DNA from: a phage
Strand: one strand, 5' to 3'
DNA length: 64,000 bases
Sequence record: NC_101838.1
Part shown: piece by piece, positions 1,845 to 49,215 of the stretch
How positions within the stretch are numbered: position 1 is the stretch's first letter
Layout of the letters: each line of letters opens with the position of its first letter
Notes under the pieces: generated by a model
The model's database searches: none
What the model was told of the DNA's origin: nothing
Seen by the model: the letters and a program-made list of their open reading frames with translations, nothing else
Program-made: the position numbers and the translations under genes

Positions 1845-2609
1845 TTGAAATTTATCTACAAAGAACACTACCACAAAGGTGTTGTGTGGAGTCTATTTGA
1901 CGGGTCTGGTGGTGCAGTCATTGACTGGGCAAAAGCTGGGTACCTGTGCCTGTGCTTTAATGCAGAAGGTGCTGATCACGGCAGTTATGCAGAGGTTATA
2001 ACCGATCATCCCAACATTCACTATGTGGATTATTGGATTGACCCATGGTTCCCTCAGGAAACTTTTTGCATGTACCCAGCTCCAGACTTTATTCTTGCAT
2101 TTCCTCCGTGCACGCATTTAGCGGTATCAGGTGCTGCACATTTTAAGAAAAAGCTGGCTAAGGACCCCATGATCCAAATTAATGCTGTAAAGGATGCTCG
2201 GGTTGCGGAAGAGCTGGGAGAGATTTACGATTGCCCGTGGCATGTAGAGAATCCTGTGGGTGTTATGTCCACACTGTGGCGTAAACCTGATTACCGTTTT
2301 CATCCTTCTGACTATGGTGGGTATTTACCGGAGGATGATGTAAACCCTTGGTTTCCTGAATTTATAGCTCCACGTGATGCCTATCCAAAAATAACTTGCG
2401 GCTGGATAGGTAATGGATTTATAATCCCGCCCACAAAACCTGTCCCGCAAATAGTTGACGCGGTTAGCGGGTATTCCATGCAACACGCCAAGCTGGGTGG
2501 GAAGAGTGCAAGAACGAAGATGATCCGAAGCCTCACACCACGTGGCTGGGCAAAAGCTGTATTCTTAGCAAACGAGCCTGTAGTAAGGAGCAGAATTAAT
2601 GGGAAGTAA
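1845..2609 (+). CDS. DNA cytosine-C5 methyltransferase-like protein (short form)
   Basis: Motifs LFDGSGG (motif I-like), FPPC (PC motif), ENPVG (ENV-like); no ATG, probable TTG start after AGGAG RBS. Confidence 0.45.
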   Translation: MKFIYKEHYHKGVVWSLFDGSGGAVIDWAKAGYLCLCFNAEGADHGSYAEVITDHPNIHYVDYWIDPWFPQETFCMYPAPDFILAFPPCTHLAVSGAAHFKKKLAKDPMIQINAVKDARVAEELGEIYDCPWHVENPVGVMSTLWRKPDYRFHPSDYGGYLPEDDVNPWFPEFIAPRDAYPKITCGWIGNGFIIPPTKPVPQIVDAVSGYSMQHAKLGGKSARTKMIRSLTPRGWAKAVFLANEPVVRSRINGK

Positions 2610-4677
2610 ATTTATGGCATCTGCATACAACCGTTTCGGTGAGCCAAACCCGAAAGCAACTAAGTATAAAAGCGGGGGAAGTGTGAAACGAGACTATCGT
2701 GATGAAAAAGAAGTTGAAACTGTAGAGACTGTTTTAGAAAATACTAAAATTGTCCCTGTCCCACAACAAAATATCGGTCTGATGGCTGCACAATATTTTG
2801 GTGTGCGATCAGCATTGTCCCAAGAAGACGGTGTGACAGTCACTGCAACATATTTCCCATATTACGACCGCTACGGAAATCTGTCCGGTTTCAAAAAGCG
2901 CGACTGGACGATTCCTAAAGAGCAAAGGGGCCATTTCTCCGTTGTTGGCATAGTAAAGGCTAACTCTCAGATGTTTGGTCAAAAGCTGTGTGCATCTTCC
3001 AACAACCGTAAGCAGATTAACGTTTGTGAGGGAGAAGGTGATGTTATTGCAGCATGGCAGGCTGCATATCAGATACAAGTAAAAGGGATTCTCACCAACG
3101 CTAAAGCCCCGGCAAAGGTGAAGCAGTGGGCTAAAGAGGTCCAGGACGGGATCGACGCAGTTATCAACGGTGGTGATCTGGCAGGAAAACCCTGCCTGCC
3201 TTTTGTTGGAATTAACTGTGGATGTGCAAACGCAGTAGATACTTTTGCAAACAATGAGAAGTTTATCCGCAGCTATGGAACAGTTGTGCTGGCAATGGAT
3301 AACGATGCAGCTAACGAGGTAGAGAAGCAAAAACACGTCATTAAAGGTGTTGAGGCCACGCACAATATCGCAGCATTTTTGATGGCTGATAACGTTTACC
3401 ACGTAGAATACCCTGGTGAAGTAAATGACCCTGACGGGGTAAAAGATATCCGTGACATGCTGAAGGCTAAAAAGCTGGAAGATATTGTCAACATGTTCCG
3501 GCACCCTGTTAAATATGTGCCTGATGCTGTGTCGGATTTAGAAGACTTCTCTATCGAGTCTTTGCGGAAAAAGACTTCCAACGGGGTAGATATCAGCGCA
3601 GAGTTCCCAAAACTGCAAAAAATGCTAAAAGGCTTGCACAAAGGGACACTCGTAATGCTTACAGGGCCATCAGGGGGCGGTAAAACAACTGTAGCTAAAA
3701 AACTGGAACATTGTATTGCAAGATACCTAATGGACCCGACATGCCCGAAGGCTGATGACTATGAAGAGGATGATCGTCTATGTATGATCCATCTTGAGGA
3801 GGACCCAGAGGAAGCAATTAACTCCTTGTATGCAAACCAGTTAGGGTTTGATGTTAAAGAGTTTGTTGAAGATCCTAGCCAGTTTTTAACTGATCAAGAA
3901 CACGCAGAGATTCACCAATCATGGGCAAAAGCTGGAAAAATCAAAGTGTTCAAACATTTCGGATCTATTCCGGTGGACGAGTTGATTACCAAGCTTAAGC
4001 AAATGGTTTGCCTGTACCATTGCCGTTATATTGTGCTGGATCACCTGTCCATGGTAATTTCAGGGCTTAATGTTAAGGATGAGCGAAAAGAACTGGACAT
4101 GGCTATGACTCAGCTGGCTGCGTTTTGTAAGCAGTTTAACGTGTTTATCTTGGTGATCGCTCACCTCAAACGTACAGAGATTGTGCCTCCTAAGGACAAG
4201 GATGGTAACCCGTTACCTTTCTGGTATCCTGTGCGAAAAGAGAATTTGCGAGGATCGGCGGGGCTTGAACAGTTGAGTTGGGTAGTCATAGGTGTCGAGG
4301 CCGAAGAAATGGTGGATCGTTCTCGTGGACGTGTCCGTCTGGTAGGTCTTAAAAACCGTCCAGCAAAAACTCTAGGTATTGCTGACACTTTGGTTATGGA
4401 CCCGCACACAGGTAAGTTCCATGATGCCAGTAATTGGTACTGGGACAAAGAAATGCAAATGTTTACAGACGGAGAAGGTGGGGAGGTTGTTTGGAGACCT
4501 CAGGCTATGTTTGAGGATCAGGAGCATGCAGTTGTAGAAACACCTATGGGCAAGGTTGTGGCTGATAAGGTTGTAACTCCTACTGTTAAGCCTGTTGACA
4601 CGCAGGAAGACCTCCAGTACGATGATCCATCCTCTGACCCGGTCCCTGGTTTTGAGGATGATGAAACGCCTTTTTAA
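2599..4677 (+). CDS. DNA primase/helicase fusion (toprim primase + DnaB-like helicase)
   Basis: Toprim motifs CEGEGD and MDNDAAN; Walker A GPSGGGKTT; Walker B IVLDHL; acidic C-terminal tail EDDETPF. Confidence 0.85.
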   Translation: MGSKFMASAYNRFGEPNPKATKYKSGGSVKRDYRDEKEVETVETVLENTKIVPVPQQNIGLMAAQYFGVRSALSQEDGVTVTATYFPYYDRYGNLSGFKKRDWTIPKEQRGHFSVVGIVKANSQMFGQKLCASSNNRKQINVCEGEGDVIAAWQAAYQIQVKGILTNAKAPAKVKQWAKEVQDGIDAVINGGDLAGKPCLPFVGINCGCANAVDTFANNEKFIRSYGTVVLAMDNDAANEVEKQKHVIKGVEATHNIAAFLMADNVYHVEYPGEVNDPDGVKDIRDMLKAKKLEDIVNMFRHPVKYVPDAVSDLEDFSIESLRKKTSNGVDISAEFPKLQKMLKGLHKGTLVMLTGPSGGGKTTVAKKLEHCIARYLMDPTCPKADDYEEDDRLCMIHLEEDPEEAINSLYANQLGFDVKEFVEDPSQFLTDQEHAEIHQSWAKAGKIKVFKHFGSIPVDELITKLKQMVCLYHCRYIVLDHLSMVISGLNVKDERKELDMAMTQLAAFCKQFNVFILVIAHLKRTEIVPPKDKDGNPLPFWYPVRKENLRGSAGLEQLSWVVIGVEAEEMVDRSRGRVRLVGLKNRPAKTLGIADTLVMDPHTGKFHDASNWYWDKEMQMFTDGEGGEVVWRPQAMFEDQEHAVVETPMGKVVADKVVTPTVKPVDTQEDLQYDDPSSDPVPGFEDDETPF

Positions 4678-4735: not shown

Positions 4736-7513
4736 ATGAGTATGTGGTCTTTCGATTTTGAGTCATCCGGTTTGCTGGAAGACCCAGATCTTTATTATCA
4801 CTGCGGTCTGTTTAAAGAGCTGAATAAGAACCGTTTTATGCTGTTCCTTCCTCTAAATGACCGCACACACTACTCCGAGGAGGATATAGAAAAGGCTAAG
4901 AACTTCATTCTGGCAAAGAAAACTCTTTATAAAGATTTTGAAGTTCGCATAGCAGATTTTTCGGAGTTGGAAGGTTGGCTTACAGGCAATTCTGACTGGT
5001 CACCAACAGCTTTGAACTGCCATAACTGCTACAGTTATGACTTTATGCTAATGGAAAGATTATCCGGTATTCATTTTGATATGTTCCGTGATCCTAAATG
5101 CATGGGGACTATCAACGACCACCAGGTTAACCTGTTTGATACGTTGGCGATGAGCAGAATCTTGTGGCCTGATCGCCCTTTACCAAAAGGTTGTCCGGAC
5201 TCTGTATTCAACCCGGTTACTAAGAAAATGCAGCCTGTTGGTCCTCACGGCCTTATGGCATGGGGCTACGCCCTTGGTAACCAGAAAGTTCAAATTGATG
5301 ACTGGCGAGATCTTCCGTTGTGGAAGTATGTGGATCGTGTATTCGAGGACGTTATCATCCAGGAGCTGCTCTGGAAAGAGCTGGTAGCGGAATCAAAAGG
5401 TGTATTCTACGGCAAATCTGACATGCAGAACTTTATGTACGATCCAGCCAAAGAGAAGCCGAAAGGGTTCAAGAAAATCACCTGGAAGAACGCATTACGC
5501 CGAGGCATGCTGCAGCACTTCCTGATGGAGCTGCAGGCCCGTCAGGGTGTGTATTTCGACATAGATGGGGCTATTGCTTTACGTGACCGTTGCGATGCGT
5601 GGATGAAAGAGATCGCTGATCGTGTTGAACCTCAACTTCCTTTAAAAGAGTTGTCAATGTCTCAGCGGCCCAAGTTCCCTGAAAAGCCGTTTAACCAAGA
5701 TGGGACAATCTCCAATAATGGTTGGAAATGGTTAAAAGATAAGCTTGGCTATCCTGTAGACATGAGCGCTTTAGAATTCAAAGCCCCGCCTAAGCGAGCA
5801 TTTACCTCCACAGGAGATGTCAGCAAGATGGGGATAAAATGGTGCGAAGAGATGGGCTGCAAAGACCCCGACAAGATGGCTGATTTCTTGAGAGGTTATA
5901 TTAAGGGCACCTCCACACCACAACCTTTACCTAAAGAGCTGATGGATCAGGCAATAAGTGATCTGCAGCAGAAGCGAATGCCTGACTGCAAGATACCTAT
6001 GAAAATCAGCAATCAGGACGACATTAAGCGATACCTGATCAGTGCTGGTTGGCTTCCGACAATGTGGAGAACTAAGGATGTAACTAAGGACAGCAAGAAG
6101 AAAGCTCTACCTGATGCAGATGTTGATGCACGAGTATATGCATACATGGACGAGCTTTTAGAGTCAGAGTATTGTGACCTAATTATCAACTTCTGGAACA
6201 AAACTGATGCTAAGTTTCAGACAACAGTGCACAAGTTCCGAAGCTTTCCTAACTCCGAAAGGATTAAAAAGGAAGTGTTCGGGAAAATACGCAGAAAAGC
6301 CAGGGCACTTATTACTTCTCCGCAACTGAAAGATACGTTTGGACACCTATGTCCGAATCTTGAAAAATTGAACGGAGAGATGGCTAAAGATATCGTCTTG
6401 TGGTTATCATTGCGAAACCGCAGATCGGTCCTTGATCCAATCAAGGAGGATAAGGTTGATACTGGTCTTCTTAATCACCCACGTTTGAAGATTGACCATA
6501 AGCTTCCTGCTAAAAGCTCTGGATTAACAAACACTTCCCGACAGAAACACAGTATTTGTGCAAACATGCCTAAACCATCTCCTAAAGTGGTTATGGGTAA
6601 AGAGATGCGTAGCTTGTGGGGTGTTCCTCCTGGATATTTTGAGATCGGTATTGACGGGTCCAACTTAGAGCAGCTTATCGGGGCTTGGGGTGCCTTTGAG
6701 TTCGACAACGGCTTGTACTATGATGTTGTAAGTAACGGAGACGCACACCAAAACAATGCTGAGGCATATACAAAAGTAGCAGGCAGAGAGGTGTCTCGTA
6801 ACGACGGTAAACCTATCACGTATGGGGTTATGTACGGGGCACAAAAAGATAAAGTTGCAGATATGCTGGATATCTCCCCAGAGTTGGGGCAAAGGGTGAT
6901 CGATGCACTTTGGGATGCCAACCCCGGTCTTAAGGGGCGCAAAGAGGATCTGGAGAAATTCTGGGAAGCAACAGGTAAGAAGTTTATCTACTCTTTTGAT
7001 GGTCATGCTATCTGGACCCGATCTAAACACTCTTTACTTAATGCATACCAACAAAATGGTGGTGCATCGCTGTGTGACTTAGTTGGGATACTCATGCACC
7101 ACCAAATGGTGAAGCGTGGGTGGTACGATGAAGGTGTCCGTCGTATTATCTATTACCATGACGAATATCAGCTTCAAGTGCCTGACACACCGAAGTATAA
7201 GACTGTGTACACCTTCGACACAATTGAAGAACTGGAAGCATTTAAGGCAGAGCAGGAAGCCAAACTTCATGTGTTCGACGGTCATAAGTACAAAAAGGCA
7301 CGCAAGGATGAGGACGGAAACGAAGTGGTTGACAGAGACGGAAACACGGTGTACGATCCTATCCTGAACGATGACGGAAAGCTTGAACTTATCTGGAGCC
7401 CTGTGGGTGAAATGGTGGTGCATTGCTTCTGGCAAGCTTCTAAAATGATGGGAGTCCCGTTCCAGATCACAGGTGAATACTTGTGTGGTCGTAACTGGGG
7501 TGATTGTCACTAA
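4736..7513 (+). CDS. DNA polymerase, family A (Pol I-like) with 3'-5' exonuclease domain
   Basis: Exo I motif FDFESSG; Pol A motif B KPITYGVMYGAQ; motif C YHDEYQ; AAGGAGA RBS. Confidence 0.9.
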   Translation: MSMWSFDFESSGLLEDPDLYYHCGLFKELNKNRFMLFLPLNDRTHYSEEDIEKAKNFILAKKTLYKDFEVRIADFSELEGWLTGNSDWSPTALNCHNCYSYDFMLMERLSGIHFDMFRDPKCMGTINDHQVNLFDTLAMSRILWPDRPLPKGCPDSVFNPVTKKMQPVGPHGLMAWGYALGNQKVQIDDWRDLPLWKYVDRVFEDVIIQELLWKELVAESKGVFYGKSDMQNFMYDPAKEKPKGFKKITWKNALRRGMLQHFLMELQARQGVYFDIDGAIALRDRCDAWMKEIADRVEPQLPLKELSMSQRPKFPEKPFNQDGTISNNGWKWLKDKLGYPVDMSALEFKAPPKRAFTSTGDVSKMGIKWCEEMGCKDPDKMADFLRGYIKGTSTPQPLPKELMDQAISDLQQKRMPDCKIPMKISNQDDIKRYLISAGWLPTMWRTKDVTKDSKKKALPDADVDARVYAYMDELLESEYCDLIINFWNKTDAKFQTTVHKFRSFPNSERIKKEVFGKIRRKARALITSPQLKDTFGHLCPNLEKLNGEMAKDIVLWLSLRNRRSVLDPIKEDKVDTGLLNHPRLKIDHKLPAKSSGLTNTSRQKHSICANMPKPSPKVVMGKEMRSLWGVPPGYFEIGIDGSNLEQLIGAWGAFEFDNGLYYDVVSNGDAHQNNAEAYTKVAGREVSRNDGKPITYGVMYGAQKDKVADMLDISPELGQRVIDALWDANPGLKGRKEDLEKFWEATGKKFIYSFDGHAIWTRSKHSLLNAYQQNGGASLCDLVGILMHHQMVKRGWYDEGVRRIIYYHDEYQLQVPDTPKYKTVYTFDTIEELEAFKAEQEAKLHVFDGHKYKKARKDEDGNEVVDRDGNTVYDPILNDDGKLELIWSPVGEMVVHCFWQASKMMGVPFQITGEYLCGRNWGDCH

Positions 7514-12493: not shown

Positions 12494-12691
12494 ATGATTT
12501 ATCGAATCCGTGTAAGAGAAGATGCACCAGGCTGTTACTTTGACTGGCGTGGGTGGTGGTTTATCCACCCAATGGATGGACTCACAGATAGAATGCTGGA
12601 TGCTGCCCTTTACACAGATACCGACATAGAATATAATCTCTATCTGAAGGACGGTATAGATAACGGCCTGTTTGAAGCAATTCCTGTGTAA
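12494..12691 (+). CDS. hypothetical protein
   Basis: ORF with CAGGAGG RBS. Confidence 0.45.
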   Translation: MIYRIRVREDAPGCYFDWRGWWFIHPMDGLTDRMLDAALYTDTDIEYNLYLKDGIDNGLFEAIPV

Positions 12692-12759
12692 GAGACTGTG
12701 ATAGCTATGTTTTATGATCTTCCTGTAGCGCCACCACCTGTTGAACCAGGAGAACTAAG

Positions 12760-13185
12760 ATGATCTATGAAATGCCAAAACTGATTCGTGACGATGCCCA
12801 AAACGCTCACACCATTATTATGGGCAAACGCATGGATATTATTTGTCATAAAGATTTCTGGGAAGGAAGTTACTTCACAGAGTATTTTGGTAAACTGGAC
12901 AATGGTCTGCTGATCCAGTTCTACACCGATGCGGAAAACAACATTCCCTGGGAGTTCGAAACTGAAGATGTCCATAAACTTTTCACCTTCCTCGGTATTA
13001 AGGTTAAGGCCAAGTTTGAAGAAGGTGAGTGCGACGATTGTGGATTTTATGAGGTAACAGATTTCTACCTTCCTAGCGGTAAGAACCTTTACTATGAAAG
13101 CCACTTCGGTAACTCCAATATGCCACAGTGCTGGACTGAGTTTTTTGAAATTGCGGAAGAGGAGCTGGCTTACCGTGATTATTGA
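12760..13185 (+). CDS. hypothetical protein
   Basis: ORF with CAGGAGA RBS. Confidence 0.5.
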   Translation: MIYEMPKLIRDDAQNAHTIIMGKRMDIICHKDFWEGSYFTEYFGKLDNGLLIQFYTDAENNIPWEFETEDVHKLFTFLGIKVKAKFEEGECDDCGFYEVTDFYLPSGKNLYYESHFGNSNMPQCWTEFFEIAEEELAYRDY

Positions 13186-13633
13186 TACTGTAGAGGGAGA
13201 TTTAATCTCCCTTTTTAAGAGCGGTGCTGGTCACCTGATCCACGGTTGTAACTGCTTCCACACAATGGGCAAGGGTATAGCAAAACAGATTGCCCGTGAG
13301 TTTCCTCAAGCACTGTCAGCCGACAAAGAGACTAGATACGGTTGCCTAAGTAAACTGGGTGCGTTCTCCCGATGGGAGCACTTATCTCCGGTAGGTATTG
13401 TCTACGGAATCAATCTATATACCCAGTTCTACCCAGGACCTAATGCTGAGTATTTCTCAATCCTGAAAGGCTTTGAGCTAGTCAATGAAGTATTCAGCGG
13501 ATCGACTTTACCATTCTACATCCCTAAGATCGGGTGCGGCATAGGCGGTTTGAAGTGGGAACACGTAGAGGACGTTATTAACCTTGCCACTTTCGACATA
13601 GATATTGTCGTGGTGGAGTACAAAAAGTGTTGA
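13175..13633 (+). CDS. macro-domain protein (ADP-ribose binding/processing-like)
   Basis: Motifs LIHGCNCFHTMGKGIA and IPKIGCGIGG resemble macro-domain signatures; probable GTG start overlapping upstream stop. Confidence 0.5.
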   Translation: MIIDTVEGDLISLFKSGAGHLIHGCNCFHTMGKGIAKQIAREFPQALSADKETRYGCLSKLGAFSRWEHLSPVGIVYGINLYTQFYPGPNAEYFSILKGFELVNEVFSGSTLPFYIPKIGCGIGGLKWEHVEDVINLATFDIDIVVVEYKKC

Positions 13634-13658
13634 CGACCATCTTCTGAGGTGATATAGT
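13630..13658 (+). promoter_or_regulatory. sigma70-like promoter
   Basis: TTGACG-N17-TATAGT. Confidence 0.45.
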
Positions 13659-13884: not shown

Positions 13885-14079
13885 ATGAGAAACAAGAAAG
13901 AACTTTACTCCGGTGAGTGGATCAACGATCAACAGGTGGGAGAGGTAACCTGCTTCCGATGTTTTACCAGGTACAATCTTAAAACTGCACCAAAAAGTGT
14001 TCCAAAGACTGACGGTTACTACATAAAAGAACCTCATTGCCCAAAATGTAAATGCCGATTGTACTGGAGCAATCTGTAA
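13885..14079 (+). CDS. small zinc-ribbon protein
   Basis: CxxC...CxxC pairs; ATG after GGAGAG RBS. Confidence 0.45.
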   Translation: MRNKKELYSGEWINDQQVGEVTCFRCFTRYNLKTAPKSVPKTDGYYIKEPHCPKCKCRLYWSNL

Positions 14080-41331: not shown

Positions 41332-42381
41332 TTAAGCTTCTTCGACAATTCCTGCACCCAGGATTTTTTCATTGAGCTCTTTTGCTGTTTTAATAATATT
41401 GTCCACCAGACGCTTGCGAGTCTTATCTTTCACCTTAACCTCTTCACCTCCGTTCAGAGTAGTCTTCAATTGAGACAGAATATCCTGAAGTTCAACGACA
41501 GAGAATCTCTGCAGATCTTCTGAAGTAATCTCACTCAGGGCAATTCTGACGGTCTCGCCACTTTCCATCTGCAGATTCAGGAACACAGTGTGAACATCAC
41601 CTTTCGAACCACCCGCTTTTGCAGATTCAACAGCATGAACTAACTCATCTAAAGATGTGCACTGGTGAATCTCCGGAAGACCTGCTTCACCTAACACGCC
41701 TTCTTCATCACCTTTTGCCAGAAGCTTTTTCGGTTTTTGTCCGTTCTGGATGCGTTGTATGTTGCCTTCATCCAGAATAATAGCTCCAGTGCGTGCTGCC
41801 AGCTCTTCTCCGTCCAACCACACTTCGCCACCAGCTGTGATGGATGCGATCTCATCTTCTGTCAGCACCCCACCGTAGTATTTTTCGATCAGGCGTTCAA
41901 AACGTTTTTTCCAGTAGCTGACCTGAGTATTCATGTTCACACCGTTACCATAAGTGCCACCTTGATAGTAGTGGAACATAAACTCTGTGTCCGGAGCCAC
42001 AGTACGTTCTTTACAACCAAGCCATAAGATTGTTCCAGCAGAGCAGCACATCCCTTCAGCATGTGCAACAACGCTTGCCTGAGACTCTCGGAATGCCTGC
42101 AGATAAGCCATTGCAATGTGCACGCAACCCCCAGGGCTATTGATGATCACCCGAATGCTCTCTTCCGGCTGAGCCATACGGATCGTCTGCAGACGAGACA
42201 TATGATCTTGTAAGTCTTCCAAATCGTCGATATAAAGAACGTGGTCAACAACAGGTGTTGGGTAGCTGTATGTTTCCATGATACCGCCCGGCATACCAAA
42301 CATTTTATTACTCATAGGTTCGAAACCGTTCTGTTTTTCTTTCATGCCGTGTACCATGGTTCTGCGAGGTGTTAAATTCAT
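41332..42381 (-). CDS. ClpP-family (S14) serine protease-like protein with C-terminal extension
   Basis: INSPGGCVHIAMAYLQAF resembles ClpP signature; candidate Ser in GMCCSAG. Confidence 0.65.
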   Translation of the reverse strand: MNLTPRRTMVHGMKEKQNGFEPMSNKMFGMPGGIMETYSYPTPVVDHVLYIDDLEDLQDHMSRLQTIRMAQPEESIRVIINSPGGCVHIAMAYLQAFRESQASVVAHAEGMCCSAGTILWLGCKERTVAPDTEFMFHYYQGGTYGNGVNMNTQVSYWKKRFERLIEKYYGGVLTEDEIASITAGGEVWLDGEELAARTGAIILDEGNIQRIQNGQKPKKLLAKGDEEGVLGEAGLPEIHQCTSLDELVHAVESAKAGGSKGDVHTVFLNLQMESGETVRIALSEITSEDLQRFSVVELQDILSQLKTTLNGGEEVKVKDKTRKRLVDNIIKTAKELNEKILGAGIVEEA

Positions 42382-42854: not shown

Positions 42855-43643
42855 TTACTCGGAAACAGGGGTCCAAATATGATTTGCACGATCCTCAATA
42901 AGATTGAGTGCGATTTGACGACCCAACCCGGAACGAACGACATCGTCTGGACTATCAAAGCTGATCATTCCAACCTCAGGATCTGGATGACGAGTAAAGA
43001 AATCCGTCACCCATGCAAGGCCAGATTTACCAGGGATGTCACGTTGGCTATTATCACCCATAATTACAAGGGTGGCTTGATCAGAGATCCTTGTGATAAT
43101 TGACAACATTTCTTCAGGGTTAGTTTGCTGTGCCTCGTCAATCAGGACAAAGCATCGCTCATCGAAACTACGACCACGAATGCTTTCAACTTCACAAATC
43201 TCGATACGACTGTTCTGACCGTCTCCCAGCATTGCGGCAAAAGCACCTTTGCCAACACGACGACAAATCGTGTCCATCATGCTTCGAAGATAGGGCCACA
43301 GTTTCTGCATTGCATTTCCGGGTTTAAATCCTGAAGTCTTTCCTGTCTGGACGTAAGGACGTGCAACAATGATCTTATCAATCTCGTTCTTACGCAGAAG
43401 ATCACCTGCATATGCAGATGCCATAAATGTCTTACCGGATCCAAACACACCGTTTACAATAATAATCTTACGTGACCCTAGATAATCAAGATACTTTTGC
43501 TGCTTCTTATTCATTGGTCGGAGAGCTGGAGCGGTGTGCTCTCTTTCGTCAGCAAATTTCTCAGCAGCCTTACGCAGGCGATCAGATTTGCGAGCCTCTC
43601 TAGCTTCATCACGCATGCGTTTTGTTTCTTTAGCTCGACCCAT
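42855..43643 (-). CDS. phoH: PhoH-like ATPase
   Basis: Walker A GVFGSGKT; Walker B FVLIDEAQQ. Confidence 0.8.
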   Translation of the reverse strand: MGRAKETKRMRDEAREARKSDRLRKAAEKFADEREHTAPALRPMNKKQQKYLDYLGSRKIIIVNGVFGSGKTFMASAYAGDLLRKNEIDKIIVARPYVQTGKTSGFKPGNAMQKLWPYLRSMMDTICRRVGKGAFAAMLGDGQNSRIEICEVESIRGRSFDERCFVLIDEAQQTNPEEMLSIITRISDQATLVIMGDNSQRDIPGKSGLAWVTDFFTRHPDPEVGMISFDSPDDVVRSGLGRQIALNLIEDRANHIWTPVSE

Positions 43644-45231: not shown

Positions 45232-46164
45232 TCATTTACCACAAATCTTCTTGTATACCTCTTCTACCGTGTCAAACACTTCAGGCCTGTAGTAGAAAAA
45301 CTCAGTGCTACCGTCAAATTTTACAGGAAAGTTTATTTTATACTTGCTCAAGGCCTTATGCACAGATTTTTCTAAATCTACCATGTTTTGAGTTGATCCG
45401 CTCCATGTTTTTACTACGTGAAGAGTGTGGACACCTGCGCCAGATTTACGAGCACTGTTAAGCACCTCATTTTTCCTCCTGTGCATTTTAACGCATACAC
45501 CGATTTTCATAAGTGTTGGCACTTCTAAGTCATCAACCATAATGTAGAGTTTACCGTACTCATGAGATAAGAATCCATTTTGTGCGCATTTACAGCAGCC
45601 ACGACCACTTTTTAGGTTATTAGGTTTAGCAGACCACTTATACCCACAAATTTTGCACCTACATTGCACTTTTGTGTTATCATTGGCAATTTTCTCTAAT
45701 ATTTCTATGTCTGGGTTGGCTTTGTGGATAATTGCAGCGTGCTCCTTATGGGTTAACGCTTGACTTTGCCCACGTCTTAAGTCATAGCACTCTGGGCAGC
45801 CGTTTCTTTGGTATAAGTGGTTTTCAGGGTATTGTTCAAACACACCGTGTTCAGGGCAAACAATTTTTACAGGCGTTCTCATGTTCGCATATTTGACTAA
45901 TGAGTAATCGTACTTGTCCCCATGAACAGCCATAGCCTCTTTTATGAACTCTTCAGTGTTCTTTTTCGCTGACCCACCACACCTTGGACAACCATGATTC
46001 TTGAAAGCATGTGCCACAGGGGTTTGCCAGAACTCACCGTGCTCAGGACAAATTATACACACAGGTGTCTTGTTGTTTTTATACTCCACTTTGAAGTAAT
46101 CATATTTGTCACCATGTATAGTCTGAGCTTTTTCTATAAACTCTTCGGTTGTTAGTCTTCTCAT
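45232..46164 (-). CDS. free-standing homing-endonuclease-like protein (duplicated zinc-binding module plus T5orf172-like domain)
   Basis: Two repeats of HGDKYDY...CPEHG...GCP(R/E)C; C-terminal KIGVC...GSTEFF resembles T5orf172-type domain; own promoter. Confidence 0.55.
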   Translation of the reverse strand: MRRLTTEEFIEKAQTIHGDKYDYFKVEYKNNKTPVCIICPEHGEFWQTPVAHAFKNHGCPRCGGSAKKNTEEFIKEAMAVHGDKYDYSLVKYANMRTPVKIVCPEHGVFEQYPENHLYQRNGCPECYDLRRGQSQALTHKEHAAIIHKANPDIEILEKIANDNTKVQCRCKICGYKWSAKPNNLKSGRGCCKCAQNGFLSHEYGKLYIMVDDLEVPTLMKIGVCVKMHRRKNEVLNSARKSGAGVHTLHVVKTWSGSTQNMVDLEKSVHKALSKYKINFPVKFDGSTEFFYYRPEVFDTVEEVYKKICGK

Positions 46165-46279: not shown

Positions 46280-47557
46280 TTATTTACTCAACGGACAACA
46301 GTCTACATTCCCAACATGTTTAACACGTTCGATAACCTCTGCTTGTTTACCTGTGTTATACGGCCTACTGTTCGGGCTGGAGAGATAGCCAGACACTCTT
46401 CGGATCACTGAGATATATTGTTCATCGTGGCATCCGCACGCAGGGCAGCAGAACCCTTTAGCTGTTGCACTGAACTCACCAGAGAAACCACACTTGAGAC
46501 ATTTATCCACAGGTTGGTTAATACCAAAATACATAATGTGTTTATACCCGAAGTCAACAAGAGCCTCTAAAGCATCAAGGTTGTTTTTCAGGTTAGGTGT
46601 CTCTACGTATCCGATGTTGCCACCGGAGGAGATCATAGCAAAACCTTCCTCATACTCCCACTTATCAAAAGGAGAGCTATTGATCCATACTGGCTGATGG
46701 AAACTGTTGGTGAGATATTCATGCTCGTGCTTTAACACTTCTGGATATTCACGATCCAGACAGGTTGCAGCTTTATAGCATAGACTCTCAGAAGGAGTGC
46801 CGTACAAGCTAAATGCTAGTCTACTTTCCTTCTTGTATCGCTCACAAGCATCTCTCATGTGCTGAAGGATTCCAAGAGCTAAAGCCTTGTCACCTTCTCT
46901 GCCCAAAATCTGACAGGTTTCATACACACCAATGTACCCAATGCTGATGGAAGCGTACCCGTCATAGAAGAGTTTATCAATACTTTCTTCAGGATCCAGG
47001 CGAGCAAGAGCGCCTTCACACCACATGATGGGGTTCTGCCCTGCCTTTGTTCCTTTTAGACGGTTAACCCTTACAAGGTGAGCCTCGTATGCAAGATCCA
47101 AGTATTCGTCAAGAACTGCAAAGAAATCAACACCTTCCGTCTTAGCTTTTGCCGCAATCATTGGCAGGTTAAGGCTAACAACGCCTAAGTTAAATCTGCC
47201 AAGGTATTTCTCCTCGCCTGTTTCCAAGTCATTGTATTTGCTAAGAAAACTCCGGCAACCCATGCTCGTTACTTTGCCATCTGTCGAGCCTGTCACTTTT
47301 CTATTTAGTGGTACAGATACGAAGTCAGGATAGATACGTTCTGCACAGCATTCCAGAGCTAATCGTTTCAAATCATAGTTAGGATCTCCAGGGTTCATGT
47401 TGACACCCTCTTCTAGGAAGAACAGCACTTTAGGGAACACAGGTGTGATCCGTTCTTCACCAAGACCCATTTTGTGGACTTTCAAGTAATTTTTGGTAAT
47501 CATTCTACCAAAGACCGAGGTATCCAGTCCTAAACTTAATGTGATGAATGGAGTCTG
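46280..47557 (-). CDS. nrdD: anaerobic ribonucleoside-triphosphate reductase NrdD, exon 2
   Basis: Begins QTPFITLS, continuing exon 1; CCPACGCH zinc site; glycyl-radical motif RRVSGY near C-terminus. Confidence 0.8.
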   Translation of the reverse strand, partial: QTPFITLSLGLDTSVFGRMITKNYLKVHKMGLGEERITPVFPKVLFFLEEGVNMNPGDPNYDLKRLALECCAERIYPDFVSVPLNRKVTGSTDGKVTSMGCRSFLSKYNDLETGEEKYLGRFNLGVVSLNLPMIAAKAKTEGVDFFAVLDEYLDLAYEAHLVRVNRLKGTKAGQNPIMWCEGALARLDPEESIDKLFYDGYASISIGYIGVYETCQILGREGDKALALGILQHMRDACERYKKESRLAFSLYGTPSESLCYKAATCLDREYPEVLKHEHEYLTNSFHQPVWINSSPFDKWEYEEGFAMISSGGNIGYVETPNLKNNLDALEALVDFGYKHIMYFGINQPVDKCLKCGFSGEFSATAKGFCCPACGCHDEQYISVIRRVSGYLSSPNSRPYNTGKQAEVIERVKHVGNVDCCPLSK

Positions 47558-48354
47558 CTGTCTCCTCCCTGTGTTTCCACAGGGCCAGACTATCTCTTAC
47601 TCTACTTCAATAAGATAATAACCCTTTATTGTGAGATGCTTACCTTCGGCATTTCCTTCGATAGCCCTATGAACGTTACCTACGTTCAAATTTAAGGCTT
47701 TTGCACAGGCATAGAGTGAAGGATATTCACCCACCAAGGTTTTCCCTTTGTATGCCTGCACTTTCCTATAGCACTTACCTGGACAAAGTCCTGTTCGGAA
47801 AGCATGTCTCTTATTATCTTCCGGCAAAACCCACTCTAGGTTAGACGGATGATCATTCAATGTATTGCCATCTTTATGATTCACTTCCCAGTTTTCAGGG
47901 TCTTCTGGGACATCCGGCAAACAATACAAGGCAACAATCCTTGAGGTTTGGATTCGAATCTTTTTACCTTTGTGGTTGAAAGAGTACATATAACGGCGTT
48001 TAACATGCTTGTTACCTTTTCCATAACCTCCCCACAATATTGGGTGTAGCATTCCACGTTTCCCGTATACGTTTCCAACCTCATCAATCACATAGTTTGA
48101 TTCTTCACCATTAAGAATGATCTTTTTCATAGAGCCTCTCCATTTCGAAGTTAGTATTTCAACTAACCCCTACACTACTTGGTTCAGAAATGTTTGTCAA
48201 GCATCTCTGCCTTTCGTTAGTCGTTACAACCGTTCCAACTCCTGTAAGAACTAGTCACGGGATTGGCATAGCTTTCGCCTTAGCGTTCCCCGTTAGCCGG
48301 ATTTACCGACCCCTCTTATGAGGTTAGGAGAGTTTTACAACGGCCAGTTTGTTA
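47558..48354 (-). mobile_element. group I intron interrupting nrdD
   Basis: In-frame stop right after exon 1; conserved NrdD sequence resumes at 47557; core-like elements ACGGGGAAC and CAATCCCGTG; exon 1 ends in U, intron ends in G. Confidence 0.7.
47597..48130 (-). CDS. HNH homing endonuclease (intron-encoded)
   Basis: EVNHKDGNTLNDHPSNLEWV HNH motif; GGAGAGG RBS inside intron. Confidence 0.8.
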   Translation of the reverse strand: MKKIILNGEESNYVIDEVGNVYGKRGMLHPILWGGYGKGNKHVKRRYMYSFNHKGKKIRIQTSRIVALYCLPDVPEDPENWEVNHKDGNTLNDHPSNLEWVLPEDNKRHAFRTGLCPGKCYRKVQAYKGKTLVGEYPSLYACAKALNLNVGNVHRAIEGNAEGKHLTIKGYYLIEVE

Positions 48355-49215
48355 ACCGTTGACAGAAGTTAACGTATTGATTTGATAGAGCAAAGTCTGC
48401 ATGCTGTCAAATACGTCTTTATCTGTCATTTGCATTGCAACAGTCTCAGCATCTGGCAACCAATGTTCCTGGCAAAATTTAAGGTTCTTCTCATAGGTCG
48501 CTTCAGCATACTGTGCCAGATAATGATCAATATGGCTCATAGTCTGACCCCCATATTGAGCACTAGCTACTGCACTAGAGATTTGGCTAAGGATTGTTGT
48601 TGCAACCCCTATTGACTTAGGCTTACTGACATGGGCGTTACCAATGTTGAATCCGTTTTCCAACATATCTGGATAATTTACCAAACAACAGTTTGTTAAC
48701 GGACTGATCAAGTAGTCAAGATCATGCACATGGATGAAGCCTCTATTGTGCTCTTCTGAGACACGGTCTGGCAGGATCTGTGTTGATGCAAGGTGTTTGC
48801 TAAGAATGCCTGCAAGCAGGTCACGATGAGTGTGTACATGATTGGTAGGCTTATTTGCGTTTTCTTTTGTAAATTCATCACAAGTGCGATCCAAGAAGCC
48901 ACTAATATCTGCAAGCAGTTTTCCACCTGCCTCTCTGTTATTATCTCTTGTCTGCCTATACTGGATGTATTCTCTGGCTGCACATTTTAAACCCATATCC
49001 ATAAGAGCGTCTTCAACAAGGATATGGATATTTTTTACAGAGATCGTGCACTGGTCGGTTGGTAGATTGTTAGCAACAACTTCATTAACCGCGCAGGCGA
49101 TCCGGTAAGCTTCTTCTTCAGTATGTCCAGACTCAAGTAAGGCGGACTCTGCCGCCTTGATCACCTTAATTCCGTTATAGACCTCTTCTCTACCGTCCCG
49201 TTTTACAACTTTCAC
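48355..49215 (-). CDS. nrdD: anaerobic ribonucleoside-triphosphate reductase NrdD, exon 1
   Basis: ATP-cone start MKVVKRDGREE; NrdD blocks GFIHVHDLDY, TNCCLV, MLENGFNIGNA, PKSIGVAT, QYGG. Confidence 0.85.

Follow-up and report, generated by a model that had tools for sequence, protein, structure and literature searches.

Gene tk.4 of bacteriophage T4 was the single significant match when T4 was analysed by transposon sequencing on a host carrying DarTG2, and a clean tk.4 knockout sensitises the phage to DarTG2; the gene was named adfM, for 'anti-DarT factor macrodomain' (preprint, bioRxiv 10.1101/2025.11.20.689424). That T4 AdfM removes ADP-ribose from DNA was inferred by its authors without biochemistry. 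The supplements of the same preprint describe tk.4 as non-essential on K-12, and a HIDEN-SEQ library was also built in Bas54 (Vequintavirinae), with the DarTG2 challenge reported for T4 only (bioRxiv 10.1101/2025.11.20.689424). A search of these supplements with the word 'macro' did not locate a Bas54 orthologue. Our search of the literature found nothing on DarTG with rV5-like phages and, for DarTG2 with Vequintavirinae, the AdfN and HIDEN-SEQ papers only, neither of which tests the gene described here.

The name AdfM was given independently to the macrodomain gp104 of PhiKZ (Cell Rep 2026; PMC13309987). This protein, which as a Chimallivirus AdfM is imported into the phage nucleus, was shown biochemically to strip DNA of the ADP-ribose that DarT2 adds, and N23 and K78 lie in its active site (PMC13309987). 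Among bacterial macrodomains, SCO6735 of Streptomyces coelicolor lacks the catalytic residues of DarG and TARG1, yet it is efficient at releasing thymidine-linked ADP-ribose from DNA and protects cells against DarT (PMC9411070). Its activity is abolished by the mutations Q85A and Q85E and nearly so by N27S, and the mechanism proposed for it is water-mediated, Gln85 positioning the distal ribose (PMC9411070). The DarG2 antitoxin (macrodomain structures: Taq DarG, PDB 5m31/5m3e; Mtb DarG, 5m3i) has Lys80 in its macrodomain, carries a C-terminal DarT-binding domain and has DarT adjacent to it.

The window, by which we mean the whole 64-kb stretch of DNA analysed here, belongs to an rV5-like Vequintavirus. 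The 3 kb round its macrodomain gene are 99.9% identical to Escherichia phages naswa, magaca, nomo and pangalan, 99.8% to APECc02, and 99.6% to HdK5 and the BASEL phage CarlMeissner, all of them rV5-like Vequintavirus. In near-identical records the gene is labelled "macro domain protein", "phosphatase" or "hypothetical protein". It lies on the plus strand within a long run of small ORFs without assigned function and with sigma-70-like promoter matches, and a helicase and a polymerase are found upstream, which makes its assignment to a replication/early block in the preliminary description a reasonable one:

2599-4677: DnaB-like helicase, upstream of the macrodomain gene
4736-7513: family-A DNA polymerase, upstream of the macrodomain gene

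Searches of Pfam and PHROG assigned no informative function to the neighbouring ORFs and revealed no ART domain, and there is thus no sign of a multi-gene system; no DarT was found among them, and there are no tRNAs in the 64-kb window. The ORF just 3' of the macrodomain gene (13885-14076, plus strand) has a Phage_zn_bind_2 domain (PF23903, E 8e-23). Elsewhere in the window, nrdD, encoding anaerobic ribonucleotide reductase, is split across 46280-49215 on the minus strand:

48352-49215, minus strand: ORF with the ATP-cone and NRDD profile positions 1-154
47597-48130, minus strand: ORF for an HNH_3 endonuclease, between the nrdD parts
46280-47503, minus strand: ORF with NRDD positions 180-562 and the glycyl-radical domain

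This arrangement looks like an interruption of nrdD by a homing endonuclease or an intron. The adjoining ORF of 310 aa (45232-46164, minus strand) has DUF723, CapR/treble-clef zinc-finger and T5orf172 domains, a combination that may mark another mobile, endonuclease-like gene among those for nucleotide metabolism. Also on the minus strand, an ORF with a ClpP-like protease domain and a PhoH-like ATPase (41332-42381 and 42855-43643) are found beside the nucleotide-metabolism genes for RNR, ThyX and NT5C.

The macrodomain gene and the elements that may govern its expression are as follows:

12609-12637, plus strand: sigma-70-like promoter match, TTTACA-17-TATAAT, 11/12 (consensus scan only)
12760-13185, plus strand: upstream ORF of 141 aa, with a match to PHROG 8157 and none to Pfam (context only)
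13160-13164, plus strand: AGGAG, a putative Shine-Dalgarno-like element read from the sequence, 10 nt 5' of the GTG
13175-13633, plus strand: macrodomain CDS of 152 aa, with a GTG start and a TGA stop at 13631-13633

In a mechanical ORF list the longest form of the gene in this frame starts at ATG 13094 and has 179 aa, and the GenBank relatives are split on the start, with the short form in HdK5 and the long form in NHEP1. We dropped the 179-aa form and prefer GTG 13175, the start given in the preliminary description, because the N-terminus that it gives (MIIDTVEGD) resembles those of the ATG-started homologues of Krischvirus W115 (MIIDTVKGD) and T4 (Tk.4, MIVKYIKGD), because it is preceded by the AGGAG and overlaps the stop of the 141-aa ORF in the arrangement GTGATTATTGA, and because a start at 13094 would produce a 92-nt overlap with that ORF. 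The 141-aa ORF is kept together with the macrodomain gene in Vequintaviruses, whereas in T4-like phages vs stands in its place upstream of the macrodomain gene. Since its stop overlaps the GTG start, the two genes are probably co-transcribed and translationally coupled, and the 141-aa ORF may encode a coupled partner of the macrodomain protein. The promoter match at 12609-12637 could drive this two-gene unit; the next sigma-70-like match in the consensus scan, at 13630-13658, lies 3' of the macrodomain gene. The gene is under purifying selection, with a dN/dS of 0.23 against Vequintavirus NHEP1 and of 0.25 against T4, a comparison in which dS is near saturation.

The preliminary description had called the product a macro-domain protein and had proposed HMM and structure-based searches, which we ran and which agree with that name. 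The match to the family is far beyond chance: Pfam Macro (PF01661) scores 28 bits where the gathering threshold is 22 (E 2.2e-6), and PHROG 335 gives E 1.9e-59. Among 1.84 billion proteins the family comprises 4395 representative clusters (50% identity) at E<=1e-3, and of 50,697 phage records searched with tblastn, 2716 (5%) contained a homologue. An AlphaFold2 model made with a 60-sequence alignment has the three-layer alpha/beta/alpha macro fold, with a mean pLDDT of 97.1 and a pTM of 0.91. The closest structures are ADP-ribose hydrolases: a Foldseek search of the PDB gave TARG1, Poa1p, Taq DarG and Mtb DarG at the top, with TM up to 0.84, and a profile search of PDB sequences returned the same class (TARG1/DarG/Poa1p/SCO6735). 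By structure as well as sequence the protein is nearer to this ALC1-like class than to macrodomains of the MacroD, viral, PARG or macroH2A type.

DarG was the sole match in PADLOC (E 2.7e-13), confined to the N-terminal macro half of a two-domain model, and the sole match in NCBIfam (antitoxin_DarG, NF048014, E 2.5e-12), where a score of 46.7 bits stands against a cutoff of 250 and the 152-aa protein covers model positions 3-141 of 338. These limits on the DarG matches, together with the structure and profile matches above, argue that the protein is a stand-alone ALC1-like macrodomain, as modelled, and not DarG. A DarG2 antitoxin or a DarTG module was ruled out: unlike DarG2, the window protein has no C-terminal DarT-binding domain and no adjacent DarT, it has Gln84 in place of Lys80, and its score is far below the NCBIfam cutoff.

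The residues expected to form the active site are encoded in three segments:

13235-13282, plus strand: loop 1, the catalytic loop LIHGCNCFHTMGKGIA, residues 21-36, with H23, N26 and K33 (hmmalign residue table)
13412-13426, plus strand: NLYTQ, residues 80-84, which holds Q84 (alignments)
13520-13549, plus strand: loop 2, the diphosphate-binding loop IPKIGCGIGG, residues 116-125

The first and the last of these are the two motifs that had been quoted as resembling ADP-ribose-binding loops. Both are present, and they correspond to the two ligand-binding loops of the predicted macro fold; both loops are conserved. For comparison with characterized enzymes, reference sequences were aligned to the family HMM. 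The sequences were taken from HMMER output, SCO6735 (5e3b) being reached by a query with BT1257 of B. thetaiotaomicron (2afc/2fg1), which is 56% identical to it, and the Poa1p sequence was checked and is 100% identical to 6lfq. The positions correspond as follows:

Q84: Lys80 of Taq and Mtb DarG (FPTK), Lys84 of human TARG1 (ITK), Lys of PhiKZ gp104, Ser of yeast Poa1p, Q85 of SCO6735
G124: Asp125 of TARG1 (catalytic), Phe152 of Poa1p
N26: Asn22 of Taq DarG, N27 of SCO6735
H23: H24 of SCO6735
K33: K34 of SCO6735
N80: N81 of SCO6735
G120: G126 of SCO6735
G122: G128 of SCO6735

Glutamine thus takes the place of the catalytic lysine found in DarG and TARG1, a point on which the preliminary description was silent, and the catalytic mutant to design is Q84A rather than a lysine mutant. 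Conservation was scored in 233 aligned sequences, the window protein and 232 homologues collected in two database searches. Of these, 228 have Q84 (3 rows gapped), 229 have N26 (4 rows gapped) and 225 have H23 (4 rows gapped); Q84 also occurs in 60/60 sequences of another alignment. The same glutamine and the conserved asparagine are found in SCO6735, which is only 27% identical to the window protein (pairwise E 9e-10) and is the product of a bacterial DNA-damage-inducible gene, not of a phage gene. The two lysines that position DNA in SCO6735 are retained unevenly: K33, the equivalent of Lys34, is present in the window protein, while the position is Ala in most family members and Ser in T4, and the position of Lys89 is occupied by G88, so that this lysine is absent.

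The most informative relative is T4 Tk.4, to which the window protein is 39% identical from end to end (residues 1-150 against 1-152, E 2e-41). In T4-like phages the homologue directly follows vs and precedes tk.3-tk, a position that identifies it as tk.4 (3923-4390 in the T4 sequence compared, L003). Like the window protein, T4 Tk.4 is a stand-alone macrodomain of about 150 aa encoded in an early region of a virulent myophage of E. coli. Both match PHROG 335, both have glutamine for the lysine of DarG, and HGCNCFHTMG, NLYTQ and P.IG.GIG are identical in the two. On the other hand, 61% of the residues differ, and the phages belong to separate groups, Vequintavirus here and Straboviridae in the case of T4.

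A closer link between the two groups was found in Krischvirus W115 (L005). In this phage a macrodomain gene at the tk.4 position (2501-2956), in the gene order vs, macrodomain gene, three small ORFs, tk, encodes a protein that is 69.5% identical to the window protein, far closer to it than T4's own Tk.4. Such an identity at the tk.4 locus indicates that the gene has probably been exchanged horizontally between Straboviridae (T4-like) and Vequintavirinae (rV5-like) phages.

The relationship with the PhiKZ protein is of another kind. PhiKZ gp104 (12518-13006 in the sequence compared, L004) is, like the window protein, a phage stand-alone macrodomain in the broad PHROG 335, which pools lysine-type and glutamine-type AdfM as 'phosphatase'. 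Its identity, however, is only about 20% to the window protein (E 1e-4) and about 17% to T4 Tk.4, and it is strongly DarG2-like, with E 9e-25 to Mtb DarG and the FPTK lysine; on the identity and the lysine, a family shared with PhiKZ AdfM was ruled out. Judged by these alignments, the two proteins called AdfM are separate lineages, a glutamine-type, SCO6735-like one in T4 and rV5-like phages and a lysine-type, DarG2-like one in PhiKZ. Phages thus have at least two lineages of macrodomains for which anti-DarT2 activity has been either claimed or demonstrated.

[quoted passage not shown] We consider it likely that the protein is an early-expressed glycohydrolase that reverses the DarT2 modification of phage DNA, its substrate and its role in an rV5-like phage being inferred to be the same as for its relatives. 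Its production is probably early, under a host-type promoter. After binding single-stranded phage DNA that carries ADP-ribose, it would cleave by hydrolysis the N-glycosidic link of ADP-ribose to thymine N3, the modification made by the DarT2 toxin of DarTG2. In such a mechanism Asn26 would hold the invariant Gln84, which would orient the distal ribose for a water-mediated cleavage, as proposed for SCO6735; the two glycine-rich loops would take part, with neither a covalent lysine intermediate nor a DarT-binding domain. The outcome would be the restoration of phage genome replication and transcription. The preliminary description had likewise proposed counter-defence against DarTG-like ADP-ribosyltransferase toxins, and this part of its hypothesis fits the sensitisation to DarTG2 of the T4 tk.4 knockout, the window protein being a full-length homologue; for the interference with NAD-based signalling that it also proposed, we found no supporting evidence.

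Several points weigh against the DarT2-reversing reading. The T4 evidence is genetic and comes from a preprint, the identity to Tk.4 is only 39%, and the lysine of DarG is absent. Lys89 of SCO6735 has no counterpart and the K33 equivalent is poorly conserved in the family. In addition, the N-terminal loop is in register with that of Poa1p (H23 is kept, S30 becomes T30), which leaves room for a small-molecule substrate.

These points can be weighed against other functions for the same fold. The protein could erase ADP-ribose with broad specificity and have its relevant targets elsewhere than on DarT2-modified DNA, or there as well as elsewhere, for instance in uracil-linked ADP-ribose on RNA or Glu/Asp-linked mono-ADP-ribose on proteins. 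It would then counter other ADP-ribosyltransferase defences or toxins. SCO6735 and TARG1, structural relatives whose active site is the same or equivalent, also cleave ADP-ribose from uracil in RNA and from PARP1, and the spread of the family over 4395 clusters and 5% of phage records seems large for a counter to a single defence. We nevertheless regard this as rather unlikely, since the sole phenotype reported for the family, that of T4 tk.4, is DarTG2-specific, from a screen with a single significant match.

An enzyme of the Poa1p kind, acting on NAD-derived metabolites during infection as an ADP-ribose-1''-phosphate phosphatase (the activity of Poa1p) or as an O-acetyl-ADP-ribose deacetylase, is what the database labels 'phosphatase' and 'A1pp' would imply, and the N-terminal loop is in keeping with it. 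But the 'phosphatase' label is a transferred annotation, and the comparison is weakened elsewhere: Poa1p has Ser where Gln84 is invariant, its Phe152 corresponds to G124, and an insertion of about 25 residues is missing from the window protein. Of the Poa1p residues probed by mutation, H23 is kept, S30 is replaced at a position that is variable in the family, and F152 is replaced by glycine. Small-molecule processing of this kind would also leave the DarTG2 phenotype of T4 tk.4 unexplained, and we hold it to be improbable.

That the protein merely sequesters ADP-ribose-type molecules or inhibits DarT directly, with no hydrolysis, is very hard to credit in spite of the absence of the canonical catalytic Lys and Asp and of the finding that SCO6735 Q85A, though catalytically dead, can still inhibit DarT in vitro through interaction (PMC9411070), for Q84, N26, H23 and the glycine loops are near-invariant, an enzyme-like pattern, the equivalent glutamine is essential to hydrolysis by SCO6735, and DarG's C-terminal DarT-binding domain is lacking.

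Returning to a glycohydrolase of the Tk.4 type as the preferred reading, we tentatively suggest an extension of it, which we think possible but would not yet favour. T4/rV5-type AdfM may constitute a separate, ancient phage-borne lineage of glutamine-type ALC1-like macrodomains rather than a captured DarG2, with an SCO6735-like mechanism distinct from that of the lysine-type AdfM of nucleus-forming phages, and it could act on more than DarT2-modified thymine, with uracil-linked ADP-ribose on RNA and other base or protein linkages as candidate substrates. If the substrate range of the lineage is broad, a single small early protein would be enough to neutralise several defences that use ADP-ribosyltransferases.

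The macrodomain annotation was already known from near-identical GenBank records, and an anti-DarTG2 member of the family from the preprint. What is new is that the Vequintavirus protein falls within the Tk.4 family, that a Krischvirus protein connects them, and that a glutamine-type, SCO6735-like site sets this family apart from DarG2 and from PhiKZ AdfM. The split between glutamine-type and lysine-type AdfM matters for annotation and for the question of how many times ADP-ribose erasers were recruited independently by phages. For the Vequintavirus phages, a group used in phage therapy and biocontrol work, a probable counter-defence role can now be given to a conserved early gene, where most early genes have no known function, and the prediction is that these phages would be naturally resistant to DarTG2.
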